In this document: positions 20,867 through 21,164 of the stretch, one piece after another
Layout of the letters: each line of letters starts with the position of its first letter
How positions within the stretch are numbered: position 1 is the stretch's first letter
Assembly (NCBI GenBank): GCA_934177485.1
Contig: CAKPPF010000001.1
Coordinates: 95,501-127,500 of the forward strand
Direction: 5' to 3'
DNA from: an uncultured Clostridia bacterium
Lineage (GTDB): Bacteria > Bacillota > Clostridia > TANB77 > CAG-508
Length of the DNA: 32,000 nt
The notes under the pieces: model-generated
Told to the model about the DNA's origin: nothing
Seen by the model: only the letters and a program-made list of their open reading frames with translations
Databases searched by the model: none
Program-made: the position numbers and the translations under genes

Positions 20867-21164
20867 GCCACTTTAGCTCAGCTGGTAGAGCAACTGACTT
20901 GTGGGATAGATGAAAATCTAGAACTATCTTGCACCTTTATGTGGAAACACATAAAGTGGACACCGCTAATTCGGGGAAGACTAAGTGAAAATATGTTAAT
21001 CCCGAGCTAAGGAGAATATCCTGAGTGTAGAGACTTTATACGGTGTGCCTAAGGTATTGCACTAAGGCAAAGAGAAAGTCCAGACCGCAAACATGAAAAT
21101 GGCAATGAAAATTGTAGTGGTATGAATCAGTAGGTCGTCCGTTCGATTCGGACAAGTGGCTCCA
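20867..21164 (+). tRNA. tRNA-Thr (anticodon UGU) interrupted by an intron after nucleotide 36; exons 20867-20902 and 21125-21164
   Basis: The joined exons give GCCACTTTAGCTCAGCTGGTAGAGCAACTGACTTGT+AATCAGTAGGTCGTCCGTTCGATTCGGACAAGTGGCTCCA. This is a perfect 76-nt cloverleaf: acceptor GCCACTT/AAGTGGC, anticodon stem ACTGA/TCAGT, loop CTTGTAA, T-arm GTCCG-TTCGATT-CGGAC. Confidence 0.85.
20903..21124 (+). ncRNA. Group I-like self-splicing intron (222 nt, no ORF), IC3-like tRNA-intron type
   Basis: The 5' exon ends in U and the intron ends in G. P1: exon UGU pairs with GCA 20931-33 (U-G wobble at the splice site), extended by GGGAUAG 20903-09 / CUAUCUU 20924-30. P2: 20935-43 / 20948-56 with a GAAA loop. 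P3: GGACACCG 20958-65 / CGGUGU(G)CC 21041-49. P4: UCGGG 20971-75 / CCCGA 21001-05. P7: GACUUU 21032-37 / AAAGUC 21075-80. The core strings GUGUAGAGACU, UAAUUCGG and CUAAGGCAAA resemble the Azoarcus/Anabaena tRNA introns as I recall them. Confidence 0.75.

Follow-up and report, generated by a model that had tools for sequence, protein, structure and literature searches.

An IC3-type group I intron in a split tRNA-Thr(UGU) gene of uncultured Clostridia, with a likely homing nuclease gene beside it

The third gene of a tRNA operon in the window (the whole 32,000-nucleotide stretch of DNA from an uncultured gut Clostridia bacterium that was analysed) is interrupted by 222 nt in its anticodon loop, which raises the questions of whether it still yields a tRNA, what the insert is and how such an element spreads. 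The two-part explanation that we consider very probably right combines a functional split gene carrying an IC3-type ribozyme with mobility that involves a neighbouring HNH endonuclease gene. The intron is of an already catalogued kind; more interesting is the likely homing nuclease gene just outside it. The operon comprises the following features:

20624-20652, + strand: promoter-like site TTGACA-17-TAATAT of the tRNA operon (consensus scan, 10/12; a resemblance alone, not a function)
20705-20780, + strand: tRNA-Lys(UUU), first gene of the operon (ARAGORN; Rfam tRNA, 67 bits)
20785-20859, + strand: tRNA-Glu(UUC), second gene of the operon (ARAGORN; Rfam tRNA, 63.4 bits)
20867-20902, + strand: tRNA-Thr(UGU) exon 1, nt 1-36, ending at anticodon U36, which is U(-1) (ARAGORN)
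20903-21124, + strand: 222-nt intron in tRNA-Thr(UGU), with G21124 as omega-G (RF00028 match, no ORF)
21125-21164, + strand: tRNA-Thr(UGU) exon 2, nt 37-76, CCA encoded (ARAGORN)
21168-21207, + strand: terminator-like AT-rich hairpin (21168-75/21194-201), then T8 (by eye)

Run without introns, ARAGORN called tRNA-Lys(UUU) and tRNA-Glu(UUC) alone. With introns permitted, the undeleted sequence was reported as tRNA-Thr(tgt) i(37,222), and deletion of 20903-21124 gave a 76-nt tRNA-Thr(UGU) whose cloverleaf is regular and whose CCA is encoded. The original prediction of a flawless cloverleaf upon excision of these 222 nt is thus borne out on both spliced and unspliced sequence. The hairpin that follows exon 2 was passed over by the terminator scan, which needs three G-C pairs. 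Exon 1 is common to 57 related loci, and the exon T-arm shows compensatory variants in relatives (GTCCG/CGGAC, GCCCG/CGGGC and ATCTG/CAGAT), which argues that the tRNA is under selection. The identical intron (222/222 nt) recurs in three independent gut metagenome assemblies and is therefore not an assembly artefact. The order TraG-like gene, DUF1858 gene, tRNA operon and SDR gene, the last starting at the ATG at 21705 according to the gene callers, is kept over about 80 loci. This establishes the structure of the split gene. We read it as the functional third member of the Lys-Glu-Thr operon, which encodes tRNA-Thr(UGU) and holds at 36/37 an intron that would be called Thr.5Ug in the naming scheme of Williams (2020).

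The insert is a genuine small group I intron, of the IC3 type known from bacterial tRNA genes. A local search with Rfam Intron_gpI (RF00028) matched 20910-21105 to model positions 1-253 with 47.4 bits (E 4.5e-11); the intron is absent from the default whole-window Rfam scan because this score lies below the 50-bit gathering cutoff. Among 11 close family members the model scored L258 alone above the cutoff (51.2), while two divergent introns from this tRNA site, in L241 and L301, reached 92-96 bits. Passages of the Williams preprint (2020, 10.1101/2020.01.27.920355) describe the seed of this model as being without any bacterial sequence. No ORF of at least 25 aa was found on the + strand within 20903-21124, and an endonuclease ORF in a peripheral loop, a feature of mobile introns, is absent from this intron.

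About 100 homologues of the window intron were found at 72-91% identity, and 98 of them were used to examine the fold. The minimum free energy structure by itself recovers P1, P2, P4-P6, P7, P8, P9/9a/9b and the anticodon stem (z = -3.3). Across the 98 homologues, the 66 pairs in 13 helices are paired in 98.5% of 6394 cells, with compensatory changes at 30/66 pairs and pairing supported for every helix from P1 to P9; sliding the partners lowered the paired fraction to 34-44%, and 0/500 shuffles matched the observed values. The fold has the group I core P3-P8 with its P3/P7 pseudoknot, and in it P3, P4, P5, P6/6a and P8 show compensatory changes. The pairs of P7 never vary, as expected of the catalytic core. 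Further invariant columns lie in J3/4, J4/5, J6/7, J8/7, the GAAA of L9b, omega-G and U(-1).G, the U.G wobble being present in 97/98 sequences. A ribozyme fold with covariation is hence established, with these elements:

20900-20909/20924-20933, + strand: P1, 10 bp; the 5' splice site is marked by the wobble pair U20902.G20931 (pair list)
20935-20956, + strand: P2, 9 bp, with a GAAA cap at 20944-20947; compensatory changes in 8/9 pairs
20960-20965/21041-21046, + strand: P3; 3/6 pairs compensatory, e.g. CG<->UA 64:32
20970-75/21001-06 (P4) and 20980-86/20991-96 (P5), + strand: P4 around P5 (alignment, pair list)
21007-21025, + strand: P6/P6a hairpin; 5/6 pairs compensatory
21026-21036, + strand: J6/7 and the 5' strand of P7, GUGUAGAGACU, invariant in 98 sequences
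21030-21036/21076-21081, + strand: P7, with bulged A21031; 3' strand AAGUCC after J8/7
21047-21068, + strand: P8, with a CCUAAG...UA(A/U)GG motif like an 11-nt receptor; 5/6 pairs compensatory
21084-88/21117-21, 21092-94/21099-101 and 21102-06/21111-15, + strand: P9 enclosing P9a and P9b; compensatory changes in each of the three

One pair of P1 covaries between GC and AU (70:26), and a hairpin at 20909-20918 with a GAAA loop stands in place of the longer P1 extension of relatives. The region 21026-21036 is the predicted guanosine-binding core. P5 carries a tetraloop-receptor-like CUAAG...UAUG, and the adenines of J3/4 and J4/5 are invariant. The receptor-like motif of P8, which reads UAAGG in the window versus the canonical UAUGG of the family consensus (CCUAAG..UAUGG), is expected to serve as the dock for the GAAA of L2. 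P9 is formed by ACCGC (21084-88) and GUGGU (21117-21), and P9b is capped by an invariant GAAA (21107-21110). The hallmarks that had been read by eye (an exon ending in U20902, an intron ending in G21124, the U-G pair of P1, the GAAA of P2, and P9) were checked base by base and their pairings stand. The features of the IC3 subgroup are present as well: the 36/37 anticodon-loop site, the compact helix inventory with P2 but lacking P5abc and P7.1/7.2, the GAAA loops of L2 and L9b, and the predicted receptors in P8 and P5.

These observations bear on the suggestion that the locus is a dead tRNA pseudogene with a degenerate, non-splicing insertion. The Rfam score below the gathering threshold would fit such a case. 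The joined exons, by contrast, give a perfect cloverleaf with CCA and covarying T-arms, the helices of the ribozyme covary while its core junctions are invariant in 98 sequences, the same 222 nt occur in independent samples, and the gene lies in an operon behind a promoter-like site; we regard a pseudogene as highly improbable.

In a global alignment with six published IC3 seeds, the window intron shares 62% identity with both Bbo3.Arg.5Ug and Mti5.Thr.3Ug, with the core strings aligned, and its homology to published IC3 tRNA introns is established. Helices, Rfam match and seed alignment agree in supporting the proposal of a compact, ORF-less intron of the Azoarcus/cyanobacterial IC3 type at 36/37. 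The likeness of particular core strings to Azoarcus was correct in part. The J6/7-P7 string GUGUAGAGACU aligns with an identical string in the published seeds, whereas CUAAGGCAAA is not positionally homologous: it forms the 3' strand of P8 and J8/7 in the window, and the 5' strand and loop of P8 in Azoarcus. With the introns of Azoarcus sp. BH72 tRNA-Ile(CAU) and of Agrobacterium-type tRNA-Arg(CCU), the window intron has in common the 36/37 site, a P1-P9 layout lacking P5abc, P2 and P9 capped by GAAA, the matching receptor motifs of P8 and P5, and the core strings AAUUCGGxGAA, GUGUAGAGACU and AGUCCAG. It differs from them in its host tRNA, in being AT-rich (40% G+C) and in its 10-bp P1 with extension hairpin; identity to the Azoarcus intron is 48%. 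The three-way P9/9a/9b of the window is that of the Arg and Leu introns (specifically the layout of the Arg.5Ug and Thr.3Ug seeds), whereas Azoarcus has a single P9. Catalysis has been demonstrated for the Azoarcus and Agrobacterium-type introns, whereas the window intron is known from sequence alone.

The idea of a new host gene and lineage does not hold, because the Williams preprint (2020) already records a 'Thr.5Ug' class with insertion at 36/37, and the intron family occurs in at least about 110 genomes. The parts of that preprint (10.1101/2020.01.27.920355) drawn on here extend the four classical tRNA intron classes to 21 and include the seeds Rba53.Thr.5Ug (36/37, anticodon GGU), Mti5.Thr.3Ug and Pgr210.Thr.2Ug. 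Rba53.Thr.5Ug resembles the window intron in its tRNA-Thr host, its insertion at 36/37 behind the fifth nucleotide of the anticodon loop, U(-1), omega-G and IC3 core, but has a GGU anticodon, is GC-rich, carries a long P8 insertion and shares 50% identity; in the same parts of the preprint Thr.5Ug is described without an endonuclease association, unlike the window locus. A literature search on group I introns in tRNA-Thr, Clostridia, Firmicutes and the IC3 subgroup returned no experimental study of the window intron.

Self-splicing is assumed here from family membership. The transcript would fold into P1-P9 with P3/P7 as the pseudoknotted core, and the GAAA loops of L2 and L9b would dock on the P8 and P5 receptors, respectively, in an Azoarcus-like manner. 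Exogenous guanosine would attack after U20902, held by the U.G wobble of P1, and the freed 3' OH of U36 would then attack after omega-G21124; the anticodon stem would aid exon alignment, and the product would be mature tRNA-Thr(UGU). Splicing would be essential if this, the one tRNA-Thr(UGU) gene in the 32 kb analysed, is also the sole copy in the genome.

Interrupted tRNA-Thr(UGU) genes were scanned for with a 19-base pattern in one genome per species, which gave at least 119 loci, and at least about 110 species-level genomes carry the family of the window intron. Among the matches listed, the carriers are mostly gut MAGs labelled 'uncultured Clostridia', together with Clostridium sp. CAG:245/492/508/780. 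Related introns at the same site also occur in MAGs labelled Bacilli, Erysipelotrichaceae, Mollicutes and Oribacterium, and a divergent one was seen in one Gammaproteobacteria MAG and one viral contig. When viral contigs were searched with an nhmmer profile built from the family, 105 IC3 tRNA introns matched, at E values as low as 2e-26. The pattern matches in Halomonas/Billgrantia (L264, L279, L288, L357) and Cytophagales (L256, L293) are not group I introns and were rejected, as were 120 chance matches of the 14-base pattern AGCAACTGACTTGTB on viral contigs, which lie inside protein genes. A blastn search of GenBank phages with the whole split gene matched only exon 1 to a phage tRNA-Thr, which sets the locus apart from known phage elements.

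Downstream of the operon, 140 nt past exon 2, begins a gene that the earlier note on the locus had overlooked:

21269-21296, + strand: promoter-like site TTGACA-16-TATAAT before the HNH gene (12/12 consensus matches)
21304-21693, + strand: gene for a 129-aa HNH endonuclease, free-standing (22.9 bits with Pfam HNH, whose cutoff is 21.4)

Its product has an intact CAKC...EHIDGN...CPNCH, the HNH motif of PF01844 with a CxxC pair on either side; a phmmer search of the PDB found no relative. In Bacilli-type genomes, loop L5 of the same intron holds HNH ORFs that share 61-72% identity with the window protein, and such 620-660-nt versions occupy the same tRNA site in at least nine genomes (L252, L285, L295, L312, L325, L334, L352 and L360, with L287 frame-disrupted and fragmented; the L312 protein scores 24.2 bits with PF01844). 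The homology of the HNH genes in both locations, beside the intron and in L5, is therefore established. In the HNH tree the intronic and free-standing members form two separate clades, which points to a single transition between the two states. Another relative of the intron (L328) has a PD-(D/E)XK ORF of family PF11645 in its P6 loop, and in this is like the system of I-Ssp6803I, around which this Pfam family is built. The closest phage homologue of the HNH protein (58% identity) abuts the tRNA-Thr(UGU) gene of Enterococcus phage iF6, and over 20 viral contigs have HNH homologues next to IC3 tRNA introns. The gene at 21304-21693 is thus probably a homing endonuclease tied to the intron and part of the same element.

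Among the matches listed, a full-length HNH gene is present at 42/81 intron-bearing and 1/96 intronless syntenic loci, C-terminal remnants at 15/81 and 20/96, respectively, and 24/81 intron-bearing loci are without any HNH. The association between full-length gene and intron in this set (Fisher p = 7e-17, uncorrected for phylogeny) is only indicative, since the intron-bearing loci come from dereplicated genomes and the intronless ones from metagenome contigs. Within one species, on 99% identical flanks, we found a locus with both intron and HNH gene (L271), one with the HNH gene alone (L403) and one with neither (L412); alleles without the intron lack it exactly, and presence or absence of the HNH cassette amounts to a clean indel of 402 nt, which falls precisely in the gap from the ribosome-binding site of the SDR gene to its ATG. 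Including L271/L412, alleles with and without the intron lie on 97-99% identical flanks in four pairs (also L322/L411, L350/L430 and L266/L397). Presence/absence polymorphism is established, and the L271/L403/L412 series reflects recent gain or loss.

Such alleles weigh against an old, vertically inherited and immobile intron, whose intronless alleles would arise by loss only and whose neighbouring HNH gene would be irrelevant or a decaying relic. The synteny over some 80 loci, the purifying selection on the ribozyme and the frequency of HNH remnants agree with that account. However, without gain, the nearly identical flanks in several lineages would require many independent, exact and recent losses; the related introns that this site holds in MAGs labelled Bacilli, Erysipelotrichaceae, Mollicutes or Oribacterium, and the divergent one in a Gammaproteobacteria MAG and a viral contig, also speak against it, as does the capture of two nuclease genes, HNH in L5 and PD-(D/E)XK in P6. 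We consider immobility unlikely.

A mobile intron leaves the role of the HNH gene to be weighed. It might be an independent selfish gene that has settled by 'intronless homing' in the gap separating the SDR gene from the tRNA terminator and whose enzyme would ignore the intron insertion site, with a real intron that hitch-hikes through linkage or is unrelated. L403, with an apparently intact HNH gene beside an intronless tRNA-Thr, L412 with neither, the clean cassette boundaries, the intron-bearing loci without HNH among the matches listed, and the common occurrence of this HNH family as free-standing phage genes, e.g. near tRNA-Gly in Streptomyces phages, all suit that account. L403 is for this reason awkward for a cut at the intron insertion site; it could represent an inactive enzyme, a target elsewhere ('intronless homing') or a chimeric contig, its coverage being 1.9x. 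Against an independent gene stands the same HNH lineage within L5 at the same tRNA site, where the persistence of the gene implies that the L5 enzyme must promote intron homing. The strong enrichment of full-length HNH at intron-bearing alleles among the matches listed and the position of the closest phage relative, likewise abutting tRNA-Thr(UGU), tell against it too, and on balance it appears rather doubtful.

We therefore return to an ORF-less ribozyme intron that would move together with the free-standing homing endonuclease gene next to it, or be moved by its enzyme; what we infer in this account is the catalysis, the target of the nuclease and the direction in which transfer took place. 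The intron would be one half of a two-part selfish element and the HNH gene the other. The enzyme would cut tRNA-Thr(UGU) loci that are without the element, and repair off the occupied allele would copy the HNH gene together with the intron about 180 nt away, either by trans (collaborative) homing or by co-conversion hitch-hiking. In Bacilli-type genomes the HNH gene embedded in L5 would make a classical mobile intron. The element would be repeatedly gained, decay and be lost, which would account for close relatives carrying every combination.

Collaborative homing has precedents in section 12 of Hausner et al. (2014, PMC3984707), the part of that review relied on here: the ORF-less psbA intron and F-CphI of cyanophage S-PM2, and the nrdA intron and MobE-like gene of Aeh1, summarised there after Zeng et al. 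(2009) and Bonocora & Shub (2009). The layout of such a pair is present in the window, where the free-standing HNH gene adjoins the gene with the ORF-less intron, and likewise at the 42/81 syntenic intron-bearing loci with full-length HNH among the matches listed. The S-PM2 and Aeh1 cases concern protein-coding phage genes and the window a chromosomal bacterial tRNA gene; according to the same section, cleavage at the insertion site was demonstrated for them, whereas the HNH protein of the window has so far been described by its sequence only. The model as given there predicts that the intron later captures the nuclease gene, and the window lineage and its relatives show both states with homologous HNH genes. 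I-Ssp6803I of the Synechocystis tRNA-fMet intron (Bonocora & Shub 2001, cited in the same review) is a PD-(D/E)XK homing endonuclease that targets the anticodon region and belongs to an IC3 intron of a bacterial tRNA; the window nuclease, unlike it, is an HNH-type enzyme encoded outside the intron.

Whether the locus and its relatives represent the first cellular (non-phage) case of collaborative homing, with an HNH enzyme specific for the tRNA-Thr(UGU) anticodon loop acting in trans and the first to be tied to a bacterial tRNA intron, is a possibility that we advance tentatively. If it is true, sister lineages show the predicted end state, the same gene captured into L5, and the three allele states within one species form a natural series that allows a direct test of how composite mobile introns originate. 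The HNH gene beside the intron, in L5 and beside an intronless phage tRNA-Thr, together with these allele states, provides a tractable system in which to ask how composite mobile introns arise from free-standing nucleases and introns without an ORF, a step that to our knowledge has been documented so far in two phage systems only. For ribozyme work, the locus offers a compact natural IC3 ribozyme of 222 nt from a low-G+C mesophile, with about 100 natural variants and mapped covariation. Because the intron falls below the Rfam cutoff and tRNA finders skip the split gene, the at least about 110 species-level genomes that carry it appear to lack tRNA-Thr(UGU).

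The third gene of the tRNA operon is interrupted, and the following features were mapped in and around it (window coordinates).

18437-20143, minus strand: protein of 568 aa, matching TrwB/TraG coupling-protein domains (Pfam E 7e-10 and 7e-7)
20624-20652: promoter-like site of the tRNA operon
20705-20780: tRNA-Lys(UUU), first operon gene
20785-20859: tRNA-Glu(UUC), second operon gene
20867-21164: split tRNA-Thr(UGU), third operon gene
21269-21296: promoter-like site TTGACA-16-TATAAT, perfect match, downstream of exon 2
21304-21693: 129-aa HNH ORF, starting 140 nt past exon 2

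ARAGORN in default mode called no tRNA at 20867-21164. After deletion of 20903-21124 it returned a regular 76-nt tRNA-Thr(UGU) with encoded CCA, and, with introns allowed, the native sequence was read as tRNA-Thr(tgt) i(37,222); the insert boundaries and joined-exon tRNA of the original prediction were borne out by both runs. An ORF search of the insert found no plus-strand frame of 25 aa or more. Three gut-metagenome assemblies of the same organism, made independently, contain the identical 222 nt (222/222), so the insert is not an assembly artefact. Exons of related loci carry compensatory T-arm variants, indicating that the spliced tRNA is under selection and effectively excluding a dead tRNA pseudogene.

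A local search with Rfam Intron_gpI matched 20910-21105 over all 253 model positions (47.4 bits, E 4.5e-11). The curated gathering score of this model is 50 bits, and a default Rfam scan is therefore silent on the window intron. The complete set of group I helices was mapped as follows.

P1: 20900-09 with 20924-33, including the U20902.G20931 wobble
P2: 20935-43 with 20948-56, GAAA loop
P3: 20960-65 with 21041-46
P4: 20970-75 with 21001-06
P5: 20980-86 with 20991-96
P6/6a: 21007-13 with 21019-25
P7: 21030-36 with 21076-81, single bulged A
P8: 21047-55 with 21061-68
P9: 21084-88 with 21117-21, enclosing P9a and P9b
P9b loop: 21107-10, GAAA
omega-G: 21124

ViennaRNA, which cannot draw the pseudoknot, recovered P1, P2, P4-P6, P7, P8, P9/9a/9b and the anticodon stem unaided (z = -3.3). 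Exon 1 ends in U and the insert in G, U20902 and G20931 form a wobble, P2 is capped by GAAA and P9 pairs ACCGC with GUGGU, all as originally described, and the group I interpretation is supported by the Rfam match, the mapped P1-P9, covariation and alignment with IC3 seeds.

Relatives were sought, with one genome per species, as a tRNA-Thr(UGU) 5' half followed by any base except A37. At least 119 loci were identified; among the matches listed (these 119 and viral contig L241), exon 2 was found farther downstream in 113 of 120. The insert is 218-245 nt long and 72-91% identical to the window intron in at least about 100 loci, most of which, among the matches listed, are labelled uncultured Clostridia gut MAGs or Clostridium sp. 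CAG:245/492/508/780, labels which we take to denote the GTDB TANB77/CAG-508 group. When the mapped structure was laid on an alignment of 98 distinct intron sequences, standard pairs occupied 98.5% of 6394 cells, as against 34-44% with the 3' partners slid by 1-3 columns. Both-sided changes occurred in 30 of 66 pairs, and none of 500 shuffles reached any observed covariation measure. The covarying helices are P2, P3, P5, P6/6a, P8, P9, P9a and P9b, while P4 and P7 are nearly invariant, as a core would predict. Invariant columns are concentrated in J3/4, J4/5, GUGUAGAGACU (J6/7-P7), J8/7, the L9b GAAA, U(-1).G and omega-G. The Rfam cutoff was passed by only one of 11 close relatives, which explains the family's lack of annotation. 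Nearly all of this AT-rich family is missed at 50 bits (window 20910-21105; L248, L271, L266, L312 and others), so standard pipelines will report tRNA-Thr(UGU) as absent from carrier genomes. A second, divergent intron lineage, scoring 92-96 bits on Rfam, is found at this Thr(UGU) 36/37 site both in L301, a Gammaproteobacteria MAG, and in L241. One Clostridium sp. CAG:780 locus (L314:6308-6677) carries a 346-nt version with an apparent tandem duplication of ~115 nt over the P4-P6 segment.

Alignment with six seeds of the published bacterial tRNA-intron alignment gave 62% identity to both Bbo3.Arg.5Ug and Mti5.Thr.3Ug, 50% to Rba53.Thr.5Ug and 48% to Azoarcus Ile2.5Ug; the intron is homologous to catalytically proven relatives. 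Core strings and the P9/9a/9b three-way junction line up with those of the seeds. The claimed matches to known IC3 ribozymes stand in this respect, but CUAAGGCAAA is not positionally homologous in Azoarcus. The Azoarcus tetraloop-receptor layout is matched at sequence level by the L2 GAAA and the P8 family motif CCUAAG..UAUGG, although P8 of the window intron itself reads UAAGG instead of UAUGG; a second Azoarcus-type contact is matched likewise by the invariant L9b GAAA and P5 CUAAG..UAUG. These alignments mark the window intron as a genuine IC3 tRNA intron. It is very probably functional, in a live tRNA-Thr gene. By analogy with its family, splicing would proceed in two guanosine-initiated, self-catalysed steps to yield tRNA-Thr(UGU), with the anticodon stem probably helping to align the exons, as reported for the intron of Anabaena (Zaug et al. 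1993).

The tRNA group I introns given by Hausner et al. 2014 (PMC3984707) are the classical cases only. A 2020 preprint by K.P. Williams (10.1101/2020.01.27.920355) maps 5292 tRNA group I introns and raises the classes from four to 21; its seeds include Thr.5Ug (36/37 site, GGU isoacceptor), Thr.3Ug and Thr.2Ug. The suggestion that host gene and lineage are new is not supported by this seed alignment: neither host gene nor insertion site is new. A literature search for tRNA-Thr introns found no experimental work; the window intron is uncharacterised, its kind being already catalogued computationally.

The HNH gene downstream of exon 2 was overlooked in the original prediction. Its product reaches 22.9 bits against Pfam HNH (cutoff 21.4) and contains both CxxC pairs and an EHIDGN...CPNCH motif. 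Relatives share the order TraG-like, DUF1858, tRNA operon, HNH (where present), SDR, which makes the loci orthologous. In 45 related loci the TrwB/TraG-domain gene lies in conserved synteny beside the tRNA operon, with no further conjugation genes visible around it in the loci examined. Homologous nuclease genes also occur inside the intron. MAGs labelled Bacilli, Erysipelotrichaceae, Mollicutes or Oribacterium have introns of 620-660 nt, the extra ~400 nt being an HNH ORF (61-72% identity to that of the window) in the P5 terminal loop with its own ribosome-binding site. Free-standing and intronic HNH proteins form two separate clades. In a Bacilli MAG (L328:5682-6354, DAOOPL010000001.1), an intron of this family in the same position bears no HNH but a 147-aa PD-(D/E)XK ORF in the P6 loop (PF11645, E 4.7e-14), a second, independent nuclease capture.

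A metagenome scan for intronless alleles with the same exon 1 yielded at least 120 contigs. Among the matches listed, 96 have the same synteny, with exon 2 variants identical to those on intron-bearing alleles.

HNH states at syntenic loci, among the matches listed
Intron-bearing, n=81: full-length HNH 42, remnant 15, none 24
Intronless, n=96: full-length HNH 1, remnant 20, none 75

HNH and intron co-occur at these loci (Fisher p = 7e-17, indicative only, as kinship is ignored and the two sets, each limited to the matches listed, were drawn from different collections). Remnants are mostly the last 25-40 C-terminal codons, abutting the SDR gene. Both elements are polymorphic within species, several intron-bearing and intronless pairs having flanks 97-99% identical. 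The clearest case is the Clostridium sp. CAG:245 lineage, in which L271 has intron and HNH, L403 only HNH and L412 neither; the three are 99% identical apart from two indels. The intron indel is base-exact. The other is a 402-nt HNH cassette lying exactly between the ribosome-binding site and ATG of the SDR (FabG-like) gene, to which the cassette gives another ribosome-binding site in exchange; each border has a copy of ATGAAT. Such gain and loss is how selfish and dispensable elements behave, and speaks against a fixed relic.

From its context, the HNH enzyme would cut loci without the element, and recombinational repair would then copy HNH gene and intron, ~180 nt apart, jointly. Such collaborative or trans homing is defined for two phage systems (PMC3984707), and the L5-embedded HNH form would be the composite end state predicted by the collaborative model. 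We consider the HNH gene rather likely to be, or to have been, the mobility partner of the intron; that its enzyme acts at the intron insertion site itself is a more doubtful proposition. L403, HNH-bearing and intronless (1.9x coverage), is hard to reconcile with homing by an active enzyme that cuts at 36/37. Complete loss of HNH from a quarter to a third of the intron carriers listed is compatible with readings other than homing, and is also what a homing-decay cycle predicts.

On viral contigs, the sequence profile of the family matched 105 introns of the IC3 tRNA type. A pattern for the IC3 core (AATTCGG..GTAGAGACT..AGTCC) was found on at least 120 IMG/VR viral contigs (L001-L120), some of which may be host or prophage DNA. 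ARAGORN placed most of these matches, among the viral contigs listed, inside tRNA genes, chiefly Leu(UAA), other hosts being Arg(UCU), Phe(GAA), Lys(UUU), Met(CAU) and others. According to the 2014 review (PMC3984707), every phage group I intron then known lay in a protein-coding gene. Over 20 of the viral contigs listed encode homologues of the window HNH (35-58% identity) directly beside the IC3 tRNA intron (including L003, L008, L010, L021, L030, L048, L064, L081, L097 and L119), which suggests a general link of this HNH family to tRNA introns. Among GenBank phages, the closest homologue (58% identity) is encoded by an ORF without annotation at ~1395-1905, in the tRNA cluster of Enterococcus phage iF6 (L481, MT909815.1). 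This ORF extends into the 5' end of a tRNA-Thr(UGU) gene (1891-1964) that is intronless and sequence-divergent, with an anticodon stem unlike the bacterial consensus, possibly a cleavage-resistant allele.

Two kinds of interrupted tRNA-Thr fell outside the family. In four Billgrantia/Halomonas loci (L264, L279, L288, L357), the tRNA-Thr(UGU) 5' half runs to the anticodon and is followed by unrelated GC-rich DNA, no exon 2 being found within 1.5 kb; probably, they are pieces of the gene left behind by island integration. In two Cytophagales/Ohtaekwangia MAGs (L256, L293), the 5' half of a tRNA-Thr precedes a hairpin (CCCGATAGC...ATCGGG), a GIY-YIG-like ORF of ~95 aa and then a second tRNA-Thr gene; this arrangement is not a group I intron.
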